From a virus (Duplodnaviria > Heunggongvirae > Uroviricota > Caudoviricetes), in IMG/VR virus record IMGVR_UViG_2728369593_000029: a stretch of DNA of 6,950 nt; one strand, 5' to 3'. A model generated the notes under the pieces. It did no database searches. It was not told the origin of the DNA and worked only from the letters and a program-made list of their open reading frames with translations. Below are positions 1-6,950 of the stretch, one piece after another (the first letter of the stretch is position 1; each line of letters starts with the position of its first letter). Both the position numbers and the translations under genes were made by a program.

Positions 1-204
1 ATGAACCGTTATTTCACATGCTCGTTTTGTGGCGCAAACGAGCTGCAGGCAAAAAAAATCATCGCCAAAGGCGGAAAAGATGAAGTTGCTATCTGCTCTG
101 AGTGCGTAGTCTTGTGTGTCGGGGCATTAATCAATATCAGCACAACTATTCAGTTCACACCAAATGAGAATGCGCCTTTAGATGCGCGGAAATCTGGAGG
201 TTAA
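1..204 (+). CDS. Small ClpX-type C4 zinc-finger domain protein (67 aa)
   Basis: Two CxxC pairs in the pattern of the ClpX N-terminal zinc-binding domain: FTCSFCG ... AICSECVVLC. ATG is at window position 1 and TAA at 202..204; the upstream context is not visible, so the start is uncertain. Confidence 0.55.
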   Translation: MNRYFTCSFCGANELQAKKIIAKGGKDEVAICSECVVLCVGALINISTTIQFTPNENAPLDARKSGG

Positions 205-1064: not shown

Positions 1065-1427
1065 ATGGCTAGCGAACGCAGTACTGATGTGCAGGCATTT
1101 ATCGGGGAGCTGGACGGCGGCGTATTTGAAACCAAAATCGGCGCAGTTCTCAGTGAAGTCGCTTCCGGTGTGATGAACACGAAAACCAAAGGTAAGGTCT
1201 CGCTCAACCTGGAAATCGAACCGTTTGATGAGAACCGAGTGAAAATCAAACACAAACTCTCATATGTTCGCCCGACTAACCGCGGGAAAATTTCCGAAGA
1301 AGACACCACCGAAACGCCGATGTATGTCAATCGCGGTGGTCGCCTGACTATTCTGCAGGAAGACCAGGGACAATTACTGACTCTTGCCGGTGAACCTGAC
1401 GGAAAACTCCGCGCAGCAGGTCGTTAA
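1065..1427 (+). CDS. yfdP: YfdP-like prophage protein (120 aa), function unknown
   Basis: ATG at 1065 with GAGGAG RBS at 1052..1057. The 120-aa length and position immediately upstream of the YfdQ-like gene match my recollection of K-12 yfdP. The ORF-track N-terminal extension (TTG at 879) runs through the hairpin and has no RBS. Confidence 0.65.
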   Translation: MASERSTDVQAFIGELDGGVFETKIGAVLSEVASGVMNTKTKGKVSLNLEIEPFDENRVKIKHKLSYVRPTNRGKISEEDTTETPMYVNRGGRLTILQEDQGQLLTLAGEPDGKLRAAGR

Positions 1428-1493
1428 TATCGTTGTTAATAAACTAATTATTCATCTTATCACTGAATATCTTTAATATAGTGAGGACTTATT

Positions 1494-2318
1494 ATGTCTC
1501 AAAACTTAGACGCAACCGCAATTAATCAAATCCATGCCCTTATTTCTGCTCAGGGTGTTAATGAAATTATCAGTAAGATTGGTGCCGACGCAGTGGCATT
1601 ACCTGAAAATTTCCGCATTCATGATCTGGAAAAATTTAATTTAAATCGCTTCCGTTTCCGTGGTGCGCTTTCCACTGCCAGCATCGATGACTTTACCCGT
1701 TATTCTAAAGATCTTGCAGATGAAGGCACCCGCTGCTTTATCGATGCTGATAATATGCGTGCCGTCAGTGTGCTTAACCTGGGTACTATTGATGAACCAG
1801 GTCACGCAGATAACACCGCCACTCTCAAACTGAAAAAGACAGCACCGTTCTCTGCCCTGTTGTCTGTTAACGGCGAGCGTAACTCCCAGAAGTCACTGGC
1901 AGAATGGATTGAAGACTGGGCCGACTACCTTGTGGGCTTTGATGCTAATGGTGACGCCATTCAGGCAACAAAAGCGGCTGCGGCAGTCCGTAAAATCACG
2001 ATTGAAGCAAACCAGACCGCTGATTTTGAAGATAATGACTTCAGCGGCAAACGCTCCCTGATGGAATCTGTCGAAGCGAAGACCAAAGACATTATGCCAG
2101 TGGCATTTGAATTTAAATGCGTTCCGTTTGAAGGCCTGAAAGAACGTCCGTTTAAATTACGCCTCAGCATTATCACTGGCGATCGTCCGGTACTGGTTCT
2201 GCGCATTATTCAGCTGGAAGCGGTGCAGGAAGAAATGGCTAACGAATTTCGTGATCTGCTTGTTGAGAAATTTAAAGACAGCAAAGTAGAAACCTTTATT
2301 GGTACTTTCACCGCCTGA
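1494..2318 (+). CDS. yfdQ: YfdQ-like protein (274 aa; DUF2303 family as I recall)
   Basis: Clean 274-aa ORF with GTGAGGA RBS upstream of ATG 1494 and an AT-rich leader. Length and neighbours (YfdP-like upstream, HD-domain YfdR-like downstream) match the K-12 CPS-53 arrangement from memory. Confidence 0.8.
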
Positions 2319-2330
2319 TTTCATTACTGC

Positions 2331-2352
2331 AAATGCCCCTGCGGGGGCATTT
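2331..2352 (+). other. Short GC-rich hairpin between yfdQ-like and yfdR-like genes
   Basis: aaatgcccc tgcg ggggcattt gives a roughly 9-bp stem with a 4-nt loop, 13 nt after the yfdQ stop. No clear U-tract follows, so it is more likely an RNA stability or attenuation element than a strong terminator. Confidence 0.3.
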
Positions 2353-2446
2353 ATGGAAACATAATTTACTCAATAATCGCCGGATGGTGAGAGCTTCCTT
2401 TTAGCAGAATTCAACGCGGTGCAGCGCATATAAAGTGGAGAACGAA

Positions 2447-2983
2447 ATGTCATTTATTAAAACTTTTTCCGGGAAGCATTTTTATTATGACAAGATAAAT
2501 AAAGACGACATCGTGATTAACGATATCGCAGTTTCCCTTTCAAATATCTGTCGCTTTGCAGGACATCTTTCACACTTCTACAGTGTCGCCCAGCATGCGG
2601 TGCTTTGCAGCCAGCTGGTGCCGCAGGAATTTGCTTTTGAAGCGTTAATGCATGATGCAACAGAAGCATATTGCCAGGACATTCCCGCGCCACTGAAACG
2701 ACTTCTTCCTGACTATAAACGGATGGAAGAAAAAATAGACGCCGTAATCCGTGAGAAATACGGGTTACCTCCTGTTATGAGCACGCCAGTGAAATATGCC
2801 GATCTCATTATGCTGGCAACCGAACGCCGCGATCTCGGGCTTGATGATGGCTCTTTCTGGCCTGTACTGGAAGGCATCCCGGCAACAGAGATGTTCAAAG
2901 TTATTCCACTGTCACCAGGCCATGCCTACGGGATGTTTATGGAACGTTTTAACGAGTTATCGGAGTTACGCAAATGCGCATGA
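2447..2983 (+). CDS. yfdR: HD-domain metal-dependent phosphohydrolase, YfdR-like (178 aa)
   Basis: HD-superfamily motifs present: H..H in LSHFYSVAQHAVL and HD in ALMHDATEAY. ATG 2447 has a GGAG RBS 6 nt upstream (the track start at 2435 is a GTG inside the RBS). The 178-aa length matches K-12 YfdR from memory. Confidence 0.85.
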   Translation: MSFIKTFSGKHFYYDKINKDDIVINDIAVSLSNICRFAGHLSHFYSVAQHAVLCSQLVPQEFAFEALMHDATEAYCQDIPAPLKRLLPDYKRMEEKIDAVIREKYGLPPVMSTPVKYADLIMLATERRDLGLDDGSFWPVLEGIPATEMFKVIPLSPGHAYGMFMERFNELSELRKCA

Positions 2984-3336
2984 ATGTTTTCGAAATGGAA
3001 GGGTTTCTTCGCGGGAAATGTGTACCGCGAGATCTGAAAGTGAACGAAACAAATGCTGAGTACCTGGTACGTAAATTCGATGCGCTTGAAGCTAAATGTA
3101 CGGCACTGGAAAACAAAATAATACCAGTGTCAGCTGAACTGCCACCAGCAAATGAAAGTGTTCTGTTATTTGATGCTAACGGAGAAGGCTGGCTAATTGG
3201 CTGGCGTTCTCTCTGGTACACCTGGGGACAAAAAGAAACCGGAGAATGGCAGTGGACATTTCAGGTCGGGGACCTTGAAAACGTCAATATCACTCACTGG
3301 GCAGTAATGCCGAAAGCACCGGAGAATAAGAAATGA
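2974..3336 (+). CDS. yfdS: YfdS-like DUF551 protein (120 aa)
   Basis: Start overlaps the yfdR-like stop by 10 nt. The C-terminal W-rich segment (GWLIGWRSLWYTWG ... ITHWAVMPKAPE) is typical of DUF551, and the 120-aa length matches K-12 YfdS from memory. Confidence 0.8.
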   Translation: MRMNVFEMEGFLRGKCVPRDLKVNETNAEYLVRKFDALEAKCTALENKIIPVSAELPPANESVLLFDANGEGWLIGWRSLWYTWGQKETGEWQWTFQVGDLENVNITHWAVMPKAPENKK

Positions 3337-3500
3337 GCGTGATAAAAACTCATACAGGAATTGTTATCACCCGAGACGGTCCGCAGGTAAAAAAACTAGC
3401 ACCAGTACAAAGCGGATGTGGGTCGTCGGAAAAAACGAGTTTTACCACAAAGAAACCGGACGCCGCCACTTTGCAGAAAATACGCGCCGCCGACTGCTGA
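3333..3500 (+). CDS. Hypothetical small protein (55 aa), below the ORF-track size cutoff
   Basis: ATG 3333..3335 overlaps the yfdS-like stop (ATGA arrangement), and GGAG at 3321..3324 could serve as RBS. Translation MSVIKTHTGIVITRDGPQVKKLAPVQSGCGSSEKTSFTTKKPDAATLQKIRAADC. No recognisable domain. Confidence 0.3.
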   Translation: MSVIKTHTGIVITRDGPQVKKLAPVQSGCGSSEKTSFTTKKPDAATLQKIRAADC

Positions 3501-3530
3501 TCGACAGCATCAAGCCTATCGAGGTGAAGC

Positions 3531-3770
3531 ATGTTTAAACAGAACGAAAAATCTATCGCTCAAATTGCTGAGTATATCCCGCGTGCGTGCCGGGGTATGC
3601 AGTTGCAGGAAGCCAAAGCGCGCCTGGAGAAAAAAATTGCGCTCTATATCGATGACGGCTGTGATGCTGCCATTCTTAACACGGCGTTCGCGCCAGCTCT
3701 TAACAGTCATACGCGGGAGTCTTTTTTTTCGTGCATTGCAGCGCAGATCCGCAAAGGAGGCAACCAGTGA
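3531..3770 (+). CDS. Hypothetical protein (79 aa)
   Basis: GAGGTGA RBS at 3521..3527 before ATG 3531. The stop overlaps the GTG start of the downstream Ea22-like gene (GTGA), suggesting coupling. No recognisable domain. Confidence 0.5.
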   Translation: MFKQNEKSIAQIAEYIPRACRGMQLQEAKARLEKKIALYIDDGCDAAILNTAFAPALNSHTRESFFSCIAAQIRKGGNQ

Positions 3771-4300
3771 GCAAGATTGATTATCAGGCACTGCGTGAGA
3801 TAGCAAAACAGGCAACACAAGGCGAATGGGTCGCATTTATTTCGCCGGGCAAATACGGCACGTACGCCGTGCACACACCAGGAGATAATCATCAAGGAGA
3901 TATTGTCGACTGGCCTGGATTCGACGAACAGAAAAACGCAGAGAACAACGCTCGTTATATCGCAGCTTTCAACCCTGAAGTAGTGCAGGCGCTGTTGGAT
4001 GAACGAGAAGCCCAAAGCAAACGCATTGCAGAACTGGAAGCACGGGAAATAAAACCAGCCAAAGGTGAAGTTCTTGTCGTTGTCTCTGGTTTTACTGGTT
4101 GCGGAAAAAGCGCCATTGCCGGGGAAATAGAAATCGCGATGAAGGCTATTGGTGTACCGGTTAAGTGGACTAATGGCGATGCAGAAAAGCGCATGACAGG
4201 CGCTGACTGGCTGACAGCAATTGAGATGTACAAACCAACTGTGCGCATCGTGGAAGTTAATGTGCCATGCGCCGCTGGCATTCGCATCAAAGGAGAGTGA
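3767..4300 (+). CDS. Ead/Ea22-like prophage protein (177 aa from GTG)
   Basis: AAAGGAGG RBS at 3752..3759 precedes GTG 3767. The N-terminus SKIDYQALREIAKQATQGEWVA is the signature I associate with Ead/Ea22-like proteins of enterobacterial lambdoid prophages, followed by a coiled-coil-like segment (DEREAQSKRIAELEAREIK). The track start at 3731 (GTG) lacks an RBS. Confidence 0.65.
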   Translation: MSKIDYQALREIAKQATQGEWVAFISPGKYGTYAVHTPGDNHQGDIVDWPGFDEQKNAENNARYIAAFNPEVVQALLDEREAQSKRIAELEAREIKPAKGEVLVVVSGFTGCGKSAIAGEIEIAMKAIGVPVKWTNGDAEKRMTGADWLTAIEMYKPTVRIVEVNVPCAAGIRIKGE

Positions 4301-4301
4301 T

Positions 4302-4817
4302 ATGGCGTTAACACACCGCGAACTCTGTCAGATTGCGTACAAGTTCCTTAAGCGCAACGGGTTCAAGGTTTGTTTTCATGACCGCTTTATAGCTGTAACC
4401 AGTACCGGAGAACAGCCAGATGCTATGGGATTCAGAAATTCAGCATCATGCCTGATAGAGGCGAAATGTTCTCGTGCTGACTTGTTGGCAGATAGAAAAA
4501 AGCGTTTTCGTAAAAATCCGTCTCTTGGAATGGGCGACTGGCGATTCTTTATTAGTGAGCCGGGAATTATTTCAATTGAAGATTTACCACCTGGCTGGGG
4601 ATTACTTCACGTTGTTAACGGAAGAGTACGGAAAGTACATGGGTGGCCCAAGGGTAATTGCTGTTGGGGTAATCCTGACGATAAGCCATTTACTGGAAAT
4701 AAGCAGGTTGAATGCGATTACATGTTATCTGCATTAAGGCGCATGGAGTTGAGAGGGCACCTTAATGAAATATATGACGGTGTAATTGTTAATAAGAAAG
4801 AAGGAAACGCAGCATGA
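4302..4817 (+). CDS. PD-(D/E)XK nuclease-fold protein, MmcB-like (171 aa)
   Basis: ATG 4302 lies 1 nt after the Ea22-like stop, with AAAGGAGAG RBS. Core motif GEQPDAMGF ... CLIEAKCSRADL fits the PD-(D/E)XK pattern (D ... E-x-K). The track N-terminal extension (4221) lies inside the upstream gene. Confidence 0.65.
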   Translation: MALTHRELCQIAYKFLKRNGFKVCFHDRFIAVTSTGEQPDAMGFRNSASCLIEAKCSRADLLADRKKRFRKNPSLGMGDWRFFISEPGIISIEDLPPGWGLLHVVNGRVRKVHGWPKGNCCWGNPDDKPFTGNKQVECDYMLSALRRMELRGHLNEIYDGVIVNKKEGNAA

Positions 4818-5380
4818 TCACTATTACCAAAGAACGCCTGCTGACAATCCAGCAGTGGCGCGAAACATACGGACCTGGTAGCAACGTTGTACTGCCAGCA
4901 GAAGAAGCGGAAGAACTGGCACGAATTGCTCTGGCATCGCTGGAAGCCGAACCTATAAGCCAAACTTACAACTTGCCAGAATTAATCGAAGGGATGGAAG
5001 TTTCCATTGATGTAAGCACTTGTGATGCTGATTTAGGTAATCGCTATTTCGGCACCGTCACCGAGGCGTTAGAACTTGATACAGCCAAGAATGGTTACAT
5101 CCTCCTGGTTCAGGACGCAGAGCCAAACTTCGATGTAAATGGCAACTCTCCGGGAACTCCGGATAGTTGGATAAGCTGTAGTGATCAAATGCCTGAAAAG
5201 GGCCAGAACGTGCTTATTTCGGTGAATTTCGATAGCTCTCTGGTTGAACCGCTAATATGCTCCGCACGCTATACCGGAAGCACCTTTCGGCGCGGAGATG
5301 CAACGATTAAGCCGGGTAATGGTATTGAGCAAGCAACTCACTGGATGCCGCTACCGGAACCGCCGCAGGAGGTGAAGTGA
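4814..5380 (+). CDS. DUF551 domain protein (188 aa), paralogous in its C-terminus to the YfdS-like protein
   Basis: ATGA start/stop overlap with the upstream gene. The C-terminus PDSWISCSDQMPEKGQNVLI ... ATHWMPLPEPP parallels the YfdS-like C-terminus (ITHWAVMPKAPE). Confidence 0.75.
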   Translation: MITITKERLLTIQQWRETYGPGSNVVLPAEEAEELARIALASLEAEPISQTYNLPELIEGMEVSIDVSTCDADLGNRYFGTVTEALELDTAKNGYILLVQDAEPNFDVNGNSPGTPDSWISCSDQMPEKGQNVLISVNFDSSLVEPLICSARYTGSTFRRGDATIKPGNGIEQATHWMPLPEPPQEVK

Positions 5381-5952
5381 TGAACAACTTAATGATCGAC
5401 CTTGAGACGATGGGGAAAAATAAGGATGCATCGATCGTTTCCATTGGCGCGGTGTTCTTCACTCCAGAAACCGGAGACATCGGACAAGAATTCTATACGG
5501 TTGTTAGCCTGGAAAGTGCTATGGGGCAAGGAGCTACACCTGACGGCGATACCATCCTGTGGTGGTTGAAACAAAGCCCTGAAGCACGAGCTGCAATCTG
5601 TATTGATGATACTTTGTCGATCAGCGATGCTCTCTCAGAACTAAATCATTTCATTAACCGGCACGCAGCCAATACGAAATATTTAAAAATCTGGGGTAAC
5701 GGGGCCACCTTCGACAACGTAATTTTACGTGGAGCTTATGAGCGAGCAGGACAAATCTGCCCGTGGGCATACTGGAATGACCACGATGTACGCACGATCG
5801 TTACGCTTGGGCGTTCCATCGGATTCGACCCCAAAATGGACATGCCTTTCGATGGCGAACGGCACAACGCCCTGGCTGATGCTCGTCATCAGGCAAAATA
5901 TGTTTCCGCTATCTGGCAGAAATTAATTCCTGCCACCAGCACAGAATTATGA
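5380..5952 (+). CDS. DnaQ-like DEDDh 3'-5' exonuclease (190 aa)
   Basis: Exo motifs present: D-x-E in MIDLETMG, a second acidic motif in GNGATFDNVIL, and H-x4-D in ERHNALADARH. ATG 5380 overlaps the upstream stop (TGATG) with GGAGG 7 nt upstream. K-12 ypdJ is, as I recall, a fragment of this kind of gene. Confidence 0.8.
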   Translation: MNNLMIDLETMGKNKDASIVSIGAVFFTPETGDIGQEFYTVVSLESAMGQGATPDGDTILWWLKQSPEARAAICIDDTLSISDALSELNHFINRHAANTKYLKIWGNGATFDNVILRGAYERAGQICPWAYWNDHDVRTIVTLGRSIGFDPKMDMPFDGERHNALADARHQAKYVSAIWQKLIPATSTEL

Positions 5953-5988
5953 TTTTCCCGGGTGCAGCCGGTTTTGATGGAGAAAATT

Positions 5989-6270
5989 ATGAACACCTTG
6001 TTTTTACTGATGGCTGAATTCAATACCCCTAACATTGAACTCTCAGCAGTTAGCCAAAAGTACTTTGGCATGAGTCCAGCCACGGCAGAAGCAAAAGCAA
6101 ACGCTTGTAAGTTGCCCGTTCCAACATATCGCATCGGCACATCACAAAAAGCAAAACGTTGCATCAATATTCAGGATCTTGCGGAATACATAGACAAAAG
6201 ACGAGAAGAAGGACGTATCGAGTGGGAACAGGTCAGAACAGGCAAACAGAAGGGCAAAGAACATCACTAA
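5989..6270 (+). CDS. Excisionase-like / PrtN-family small DNA-binding protein (93 aa)
   Basis: GGAG 6 nt upstream of ATG 5989. The N-terminus MNTLFLLMAEFNTPNIELSAVSQKYFGMSPATAEAKANACKLPVPTYRIG resembles the PrtN / P22-Xis-like family as I remember it. Last gene of the + strand array; alternative ATG starts at 5962 and 5977. Confidence 0.6.
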   Translation: MNTLFLLMAEFNTPNIELSAVSQKYFGMSPATAEAKANACKLPVPTYRIGTSQKAKRCINIQDLAEYIDKRREEGRIEWEQVRTGKQKGKEHH

Positions 6271-6272
6271 AG

Positions 6273-6300
6273 AAAAAACCCGCCTAAAGGCGGGTTTTCA
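6273..6300. terminator. Bidirectional rho-independent terminator
   Basis: aaaaaa CCCGCC taaa GGCGGG tttt: a 6-bp GC stem (extendable by A:T pairs) with a 4-nt loop, flanked by an A-tract upstream and a T-tract downstream. It lies between the converging + strand array (stop 6270) and the minus-strand ORF (stop 6318..6320). Confidence 0.8.
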
Positions 6301-6317
6301 AAAAGCACCAGCTATGA

Positions 6318-6491
6318 TCATGCTACTTTGCGACGACGAAGCTTACCCTGCTGCTCTTTACCAGAGACAGTAGCGTGAGTGAACGCATTAGGAGCAGCCT
6401 TCATCAGAACTTCAACAGCAGCCCCCATACCTGCGAATGCTTTCATTGTGTCGAACTTAACCTGTGGCTTGGTTGCTTTTTGATCTTCCAT
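6318..6491 (-). CDS. Hypothetical small protein (57 aa), below the ORF-track size cutoff
   Basis: Hand-translated from the minus strand: MEDQKATKPQVKFDTMKAFAGMGAAVEVLMKAAPNAFTHATVSGKEQQGKLRRRKVA. GGAG lies 7 nt upstream of ATG 6491..6489, and the ORF ends 17 nt before the bidirectional terminator. No recognisable domain. Confidence 0.45.
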   Translation of the reverse strand: MEDQKATKPQVKFDTMKAFAGMGAAVEVLMKAAPNAFTHATVSGKEQQGKLRRRKVA

Positions 6492-6530
6492 AGAAAACTC
6501 CAGAAGCTATACCGAAAAAATTCCTGTTGT

Positions 6531-6950
6531 TTACTCATCATCAATAGATGATACGCAATATTTATTTTTAAATTTAAGGTTCTTTGGCGTAACTTCATCA
6601 GATATATCAAAACCGTCCAGAATTCTATTGAATGTAGCTTCTGGCATATCATCATGAACAGAAATCTCACCCGATCGCTGCTTTCTAACCATGTTATCCA
6701 CTCGCCAAATTATAGCTTCAGCGTAAACAACATAACTTGGATGCTTGATAAAGCGATGATCACCAGAATTCAAGACGCAAGACGGATCGTGGGGGACACC
6801 ATCCTTGATACTAGAAATATTAACAACTAAAACACAATAACAATCGTTAACGGGGTAATAAACAGGATCATTACAAATCACATGAAGATGATTGCATGGC
6901 CCAGTTGGGGCAAGCACAGTTCCTTTCCTGTATGGCTGATAATCCGTCAT
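6531..6950 (-). CDS. Hypothetical protein (at least 139 aa; ATG coincides with the window edge), Cys/His-rich, unknown family
   Basis: Continuous minus-strand ORF in visibly AT-rich DNA. Several Cys/His clusters (GPCNHLHVICND, CYC, HDPSC, GDHRFIKH). The start cannot be confirmed because the upstream sequence is outside the window. Confidence 0.55.
   Translation of the reverse strand: MTDYQPYRKGTVLAPTGPCNHLHVICNDPVYYPVNDCYCVLVVNISSIKDGVPHDPSCVLNSGDHRFIKHPSYVVYAEAIIWRVDNMVRKQRSGEISVHDDMPEATFNRILDGFDISDEVTPKNLKFKNKYCVSSIDDE

Follow-up and report, generated by a model that had tools for sequence, protein, structure and literature searches.

A probable T6-type PanAT pair carried as cargo in a lambdoid prophage of E. 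coli

Just past the excisionase gene that ends the early-left array of an E. coli lambdoid prophage, two small genes face the opposite way, and the question they raise is whether they form a cassette of their own, of an undescribed family, or belong to something already described. The window analyzed here, a stretch of 6,950 nt, is the early-left arm of that prophage, with a plus-strand array of YfdP/Q/R-type, Ea22-like, 3'-5' exonuclease and PrtN-type excisionase genes; the last of these, xis, is convergent with the two minus-strand genes, here called panT and orf57 (Table 1). The first of the two is very likely the toxin gene of a Panacea-type pair whose antitoxin gene, panA, lies just past the window edge. 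The locus is a new example of a described system, a T6-type PanAT in an E. coli prophage, and it extends the described PanAT family and opens no new one.

Layout and composition of the genes beside xis

The list of open reading frames confirmed much of what the first-pass annotation had drawn from the letters alone, namely a 139-aa and a 57-aa frame on the minus strand with 39 nt between them, the first rich in Cys and His (six of each by count) and the second with an amphipathic core and the basic tail GKLRRRKVA. Among the Cys and His residues of the 139-aa protein, only H21, C58, and H65 are family-wide features. The plus-strand array had also been said to end at a bidirectional terminator, and here the claim stood for one direction. 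The hairpin begins 4 nt past the xis stop on the plus strand and is strong (-19.3 kcal/mol, z = -3.7, with 0 of 200 shuffles folding equally well), and a terminator scan calls it on the minus strand, where a T-run follows the stem; on the plus strand only TTTTC follows, and the scan makes no call. An Rfam scan of the window gave no match, a promoter scan of positions 5900-6950 gave no promoter-like site and nothing above shuffle expectation, and the region upstream of panA holds a single 9/12 promoter match, within shuffle expectation.

A flank richer in AT than the phage genes had been judged by eye, and measured composition bore this out for one gene of the two. The GC content of positions 6304-6950 is 0.411, compared with 0.469 for positions 1065-6270, and lies below that of every 647-nt window of the array, though the deficit stems wholly from the 139-aa gene (GC 0.383, GC3 0.307; below every 420-nt array window, the minimum being 0.400), whereas orf57, with a GC content of 0.483, is indistinguishable from the phage backbone. 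This split was the first hint that the two genes have separate histories.

Table 1 Features of the window and of the related loci
Feature	Locus	Coordinates	Strand	Remarks
67-aa ORF	window	1-204	+	two CxxC pairs; K-15KW01 counterpart annotated 'ClpX C4-type zinc finger protein'
xis, PrtN-type excisionase	window	5962-6270	+	PF11112, E 4e-23; phrog_1300 'excisionase', E 8e-40
Intrinsic terminator hairpin	window	6274-6299	-	11-bp stem, then T-run; predicted end of the panA-panT-orf57 transcript
orf57 (57 aa, phrog_2741)	window	6318-6491	-	conserved small phage protein
panT-orf57 spacer (39 nt)	window	6492-6530	-	holds orf57 ribosome-binding site GGAG and recombination junction at ~6504
panT (139 aa)	window	6531-6950	-	probable toxin of PanT cluster T6 type; predicted MazF/Kid/CcdB-like fold
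panT ATG	window	6948-6950	-	overlaps panA stop codon as ATGA; panA beyond window end
panA	L001	9048-9620		outside window
Prophage/host junction, K-15KW01	L001	~9885-9893		in region 9621-10093
177-aa gene + orf57, mEp460 gp24-gp23	L003	4419-5322		xis/attP slot
Spacer of ~190 nt, mEp460	L003	4593-4788		
177-179-aa gene + orf57, Salmonella	L012-L016	2274-3174		xis/attP slot
Spacer of ~190 nt, Salmonella	L012	2808-3000		
177-aa gene + orf57, O157:H7	L024	3514-4417		xis/attP slot
177-179-aa gene + orf57, Enterobacter	L017-L020	2283-3174		Q-to-lysis region
179-aa gene + orf57, Hafnia	L021-L023	2319-3174		adjoins RelA_SpoT gene
RelA_SpoT (toxSAS-like) gene, Hafnia	L021-L023	995-2109		flanks the 179-aa/orf57 pair
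Second Panacea pair, phiSTEC1575-Stx2k	L025	3396-4440		xis-adjacent slot
PanA-PanT, Proteus/Providencia				past tail-fibre gene, once adjoining Abi_2 gene
Proteus prophage end	L007	657-3408		Abi_2 (PF07751) gene adjoins PanAT in this one locus
PanA-PanT, Vibrio				between integrase and S24 repressor; genes 1 nt apart
PanA-PanT, Enterobacter				within tail module
PanA-PanT, Pantoea	L038-L041	1557-3405		right behind cI-like S24 repressor gene, in the same orientation
PanA-PanT, Pseudomonas				overlap of 1 or 4 nt

The upstream Panacea gene and the predicted fold of the 139-aa protein

DNA that is 98.7-99.9% identical to that of the window is present in complete genomes of E. coli and in the phages SKA5 and Lys8385Vzw, and it continues past the window end into panA, a gene for 190 aa on the same strand as panT, which starts about 570 nt beyond that end and whose stop codon overlaps the panT ATG by 4 nt in the lists of open reading frames. 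RefSeq labels its product a 'Panacea domain-containing protein' in E. coli genomes, and the protein matches PF13274 SocA_Panacea (E 1.8e-18; score 67.9 bits, cutoff 25.7), so that it carries the Panacea domain (DUF4065, PF13274) of a PanAT antitoxin. The two-gene cassette that the first-pass annotation had made of the 139-aa and 57-aa genes was drawn in the wrong place, since the window stops at the start codon of the 139-aa gene and leaves that gene's actual partner out of view; the true pair is the upstream Panacea gene and the 139-aa gene. A window edge can thus make a textbook antitoxin-toxin pair look like an orphan 'mystery cassette'.

The pair recurs well beyond E. coli. The overlap of its two genes is usually 4 nt in other genera, as it is here, and in Proteus, Vibrio, Enterobacter, and Pantoea the pairs occupy differing prophage cargo slots. 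The Pantoea pair lies downstream of a cI-like repressor gene, which is the position of rexAB in lambda and suggests expression in the lysogen.

The RefSeq/PGAP start of panT is an internal GTG at window position 6917, giving a protein of 128 aa, but the 139-aa ATG form is the more likely one, because its ATG overlaps the panA stop and its first 11 residues are conserved: M1, P6, K9, and T11 occur in at least 90% of homologs, and G10 is invariant. Clustering at 90% identity gave 62 clusters of homologs of 47-100% identity, over full or partial length, those with names coming from Enterobacterales, Vibrio, and Shewanella, and a profile search with the family reached 2703 representative proteins at E<=1e-3. 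Pfam (E<=1), NCBIfam, and PADLOC scans of the 139-aa protein gave no meaningful match, a Pfam match to ICMT being spurious, and its only PHROGs match was phrog_19071, a family of unknown function.

An AlphaFold2 model of the 139-aa protein is confident (pLDDT 90.6, pTM 0.83), and when it was compared with the PDB by Foldseek, the first 45 matches were all MazF-family chains, while the fold search of BFVD returned 'PemK-like' phage proteins. The model has the SH3-like barrel of the MazF/CcdB type, and beyond the barrel it adds two helices (residues 104-116 and 122-131), unlike MazF, Kid, and CcdB. Both open reading frames are real genes, PanT by its homologs, conserved N terminus, and confident model, and orf57 by its conservation.

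The relation to MazF rests on the fold, since hhalign of the PanT family against the E. coli MazF sequence gave a probability of 0.3; the family profile found only chance matches among PDB sequences (E 0.3-0.5), and PanT is not a member of the PemK_toxin profile PF02452 by sequence. The residues conserved in 130 diverse family members are H21, L22, V43, D55, C58, G63, H65, F67, S72, Y76, G113, and S117, and there is no conserved Arg in the invariant set (H21, D55, C58, H65, S72, and Y76). The catalytic residues of E. coli MazF are Arg29 and Thr52. In a register set by hand, NHLHVICNDP of PanT is placed against GHRPAVVLSP of MazF and VVNISS against VPCTT, which would bring H21 and S46/S47 near the MazF site. 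The conserved H/D/C/H residues of PanT are unlike the Arg and Thr of MazF.

Relation to T6-type PanAT systems and a proposed mode of action

PanAT systems were defined, and their toxins sorted into 88 clusters, by Kurata et al. (2022, PNAS, PMC8832971). In the supplementary rows of that paper covered here, cluster T6 has at least 87 label occurrences, the gene order A|T with a gene distance of -4 or -1, and members in Proteus, Pantoea, Pluralibacter, Photorhabdus, and Pseudomonas among others, and by HHpred it is described as 'EndoA/PemK/MazF-family RNases'. The T6 PanT of P. moraviensis is toxic in E. coli and is neutralized by its own PanA, with which it co-purifies, and it specifically inhibits protein synthesis (PMC8832971). 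Of the 25 PanTs assayed in that study, 8 were non-toxic in E. coli, and some PanAs failed to rescue (PMC8832971).

Our link to the P. moraviensis pair is indirect and runs through P. atacamensis and Pseudomonas sp. App30 and through matching rows of the T6 table. Species-representative genomes were scanned for a decapeptide (IFSEQKVAQ) that is the reported N terminus of P. moraviensis PanA, and the scan found six Pseudomonas loci and one stray Pelagibacter match, the Pseudomonas loci including those of P. atacamensis and of P. reinekei, which is among the species listed under T6. Compared with the E. coli PanA, the PanA of P. atacamensis shows 43% identity (E 2e-47), and the 132-aa protein encoded downstream of it is 43% identical to the 139-aa PanT (E 4e-32) and keeps all the signature residues; homology of the toxin to T6 members is supported through this relative. 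The 43% identities of both proteins to a Pseudomonas T6-type pair indicate that the E. coli pair belongs with the T6-type PanATs, and we consider it highly probable that the locus carries a type II PanA-PanT pair of this type as prophage cargo. The T6 rows for Proteus and Pantoea ('MULTISPECIES hypothetical protein', A|T, -4) fit our family members P0017 and P0035 by description, and the accessions of the E. coli pair, WP_014640052 and WP_021538830, are absent from the supplementary rows covered here (PMC8832971). A literature search found no paper on this E. coli prophage copy.

The first-pass annotation had suspected toxin-like cargo, which suits the 139-aa protein with its MazF-like fold and Panacea partner, and it had recognized neither protein family; that of the 139-aa protein is in fact described, since it corresponds to PanT cluster T6, with its experimentally validated member. 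Its fuller reading, that the 139-aa and 57-aa genes make up a self-contained cassette, for toxin and immunity or for exclusion, of a family not yet described, draws on two genes that are adjacent, co-oriented, compact, and at a prophage end. It is scarcely credible against a 139-aa gene that is translationally coupled to a Panacea gene upstream of it in all the loci examined, across six genera including E. coli, and that is already catalogued as PanT T6, and a 57-aa gene that has another usual partner and another composition.

For the T6-type PanA-PanT pair we propose the following mode of action. The panAT genes would be transcribed from their own upstream region, convergent to the early-left operon, into the hairpin beside xis. 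PanA would bind PanT directly and hold it inactive; once PanA disappears or a trigger acts on it, PanT would be free to halt protein synthesis, most probably by cutting RNA, with the family-specific set H21, D55, C58, H65, S72, and Y76 carried on a MazF/Kid-like fold. By homology with the P. moraviensis pair, it is reasonably likely that PanA neutralizes PanT directly and that PanT, once free, arrests translation. The endoribonuclease step, predicted from the modeled fold, is an evenly balanced prospect; the His/Asp/Cys/His set differs from MazF, and CcdB shares the fold. PanT might have the MazF/CcdB fold with some activity other than that of a MazF-type endoribonuclease, either as a CcdB-like gyrase poison or as a metal- or thiol-dependent enzyme built on His21, Asp55, Cys58, and His65, and this we hold to be unlikely.

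In the lysogen, the pair would make the prophage more stable, abort infection by other phages, or both. Such a part in prophage retention, phage exclusion, or abortive infection is put forward tentatively from location, that is, from the cargo slots that the pair occupies in five genera, among them the rexAB-like position in Pantoea; should the pair protect lysogens from other phages, it would matter for phage therapy and for the stability of prophages. A bolder version of this idea, in which PanT of the T6 type has a MazF-fold chemistry or target not seen before and serves here as an abortive-infection switch with orf57 as a lineage-specific modulator, seems improbable, though His21/Asp55/Cys58/His65 (with Ser72 and Tyr76) standing in for the MazF catalytic residues means that a chemistry or target yet to be described may apply. 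No Pfam model covers the PanT-T6 family, which runs to about 2700 representative clusters.

The E. coli pair resembles the P. moraviensis PanAT in that a standalone Panacea antitoxin ('noNTD') is followed by a toxin of about 130-140 aa, overlapping or abutting and in the order A|T, in that each E. coli protein shares 43% identity with its counterpart in close Pseudomonas relatives of the P. moraviensis pair, and in that the toxin has a MazF/PemK-like fold with no CDD or Pfam match; it differs from that pair, which is classed 'NotPhage', in being prophage cargo and in having an extra small gene downstream. Unlike MazEF, Kis-Kid (PemIK), and CcdAB, its antitoxin is a Panacea-domain protein and not an AbrB/RHH-type MazE, Kis, or CcdA, and unlike the toxins of MazEF and PemIK, the PanT sequence has no detectable similarity to PF02452 PemK. 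With SocAB of Caulobacter crescentus it shares an antitoxin that has the PF13274 SocA_Panacea domain. SocA is the founding Panacea/DUF4065 antitoxin and acts as a ClpXP adaptor, not as a direct inhibitor, and SocB blocks replication. The E. coli system differs from SocAB in its toxin, SocB (cluster T10, PMC8832971) being of a different family from PanT. The comparison with lambda rexAB is one of position and function, both being accessory two-gene units in a variable prophage slot and the Pantoea PanAT behind its cI-like repressor taking the place that rexAB has in lambda, but rexAB has no homology to PanAT, and PanAT has no PADLOC match.

orf57 and the exchange of cargo beside xis

The panT gene occurs in 208 of 5426 complete E. 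coli genomes (~4%), with O25b:H4, ETEC, and other pathogenic lineages among them, and a probable role can now be assigned to a gene that RefSeq labels 'hypothetical protein' in these genomes. Any part of positions 5900-6950 is matched in 742 of the 5426. The cassette lies inside the phage genome, from xis to int, in Lys8385Vzw and SKA5. In K-15KW01, the DNA ceases to resemble the phages about 270 nt past panA, beside zur, and this point marks the junction between prophage and host, and the phages bear a 5' fragment of dusA at the junction, as expected of dusA-targeting integrases. The panAT pair is very likely carried as cargo, between xis and attP, by a lambdoid prophage of E. coli that integrates at dusA. 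In O157:H7 (L024), a DUF2713 gene separates zur from the dusA fragment; K-15KW01 is without it.

The first-pass annotation had suspected cargo just past the excisionase gene and had proposed a survey of whether the slot varies. The foreign GC content of panT and the occupancy of the slot both point to accessory cargo in a variable slot, as two other contents were seen besides panAT-orf57, making at least three. In mEp460, Salmonella, and O157:H7, the content is a 177-aa gene followed by orf57. In phiSTEC1575-Stx2k, it is another Panacea gene, whose 157-aa product is 20% identical to the E. coli PanA and matches PF13274 (E 6e-18), together with an unrelated 182-aa partner protein (phrog_13343) and no orf57; judged by sequence, this is a second PanAT-like pair, in a Shiga-toxin phage. 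The xis-attP(dusA) slot exchanges TA-like cargo, with two of its contents holding unrelated Panacea pairs, and the Shiga-toxin phages of this group have other cargo there.

The orf57 product is a full-length member of phrog_2741, a PHROG family of unknown function (E 2.2e-35, residues 1-57 on profile positions 1-57), and its homologs form 48 clusters, of which those named by organism are all from Enterobacterales, mostly Enterobacteriaceae and Hafnia. The length of 57 aa is conserved across Enterobacteriaceae, and between E. coli and Enterobacter the gene has 4, 3, and 15 differences at codon positions 1, 2, and 3, or 15 synonymous and 6 non-synonymous codons, a pattern of purifying selection. 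Pfam, NCBIfam, and PADLOC scans of the protein gave no meaningful match, and its AlphaFold2 model, with a single short helix and a pLDDT of 60.9, is too poor for a fold search. Elsewhere orf57 lies behind a gene of 177-179 aa (phrog_4350) in three different prophage slots (Table 1), and this mobile two-gene unit is the normal state of orf57.

The junction between the two arrangements can be placed closely. DNA similarity to mEp460 stops at query position 605, window position ~6504, about 13 nt 5' of the orf57 start, and upstream of the orf57 ATG, mEp460, Salmonella, and the window have only GGAGTTTTCT in common. This indicates that panA-panT replaced the 177-aa gene together with a spacer of about 190 nt, after which orf57 retains only its own ribosome-binding site. 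As no promoter-like site lies between panT and orf57, co-transcription with panAT is likely, and orf57 is probably read from the panAT transcript in this lineage.

Such an arrangement could suggest a tripartite system, in which orf57 is a functional third PanAT component, whether a second small toxin, a regulator, or a protease-targeted modulator, and in one version of which its conserved C terminus (...RKAA/KVA) could serve as a degradation tag. The three genes do share a strand, the first two overlapping by 4 nt and the last two standing 39 nt apart; panA, panT, and orf57 have a common terminator and no promoter-like site between them; of the 208 E. coli genomes with panT, at least 193 hold the complete panT-orf57-xis arrangement; and some PanAT loci may have conserved third genes (PMC8832971). 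We nevertheless regard this as quite unlikely, given that no orf57-like gene lies behind PanA-PanT in the PanAT(T6) loci of Enterobacter, Pantoea, Proteus, and Vibrio, so that the third gene is not conserved alongside the pair, that orf57 is present in 562 of the 5426 E. coli genomes as against 208 for panT, that elsewhere it accompanies a different gene in three slots, that its composition is that of the backbone and unlike panT, and that the DNA junction just 5' of its ribosome-binding site looks like replacement of a neighbor and not co-evolution. We therefore take orf57 to be what these observations show, a separate conserved phage gene and no conserved part of PanAT.

The phrog_4350 protein that usually precedes orf57 has no Pfam match and no similarity to PanA, and the PADLOC defense models matched neither it nor PanA, PanT, or orf57. 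Its only matches among PDB sequences were to a gp41 construct and are spurious; by eye, our impression is that it is GNAT-like. In mEp460 and Salmonella, a conserved spacer of about 190 nt, which the window lacks, separates the 177-aa gene from orf57; within it lies a palindrome, CCAATCG(N6-7)CGATTGG, which could be an operator or a processing site.
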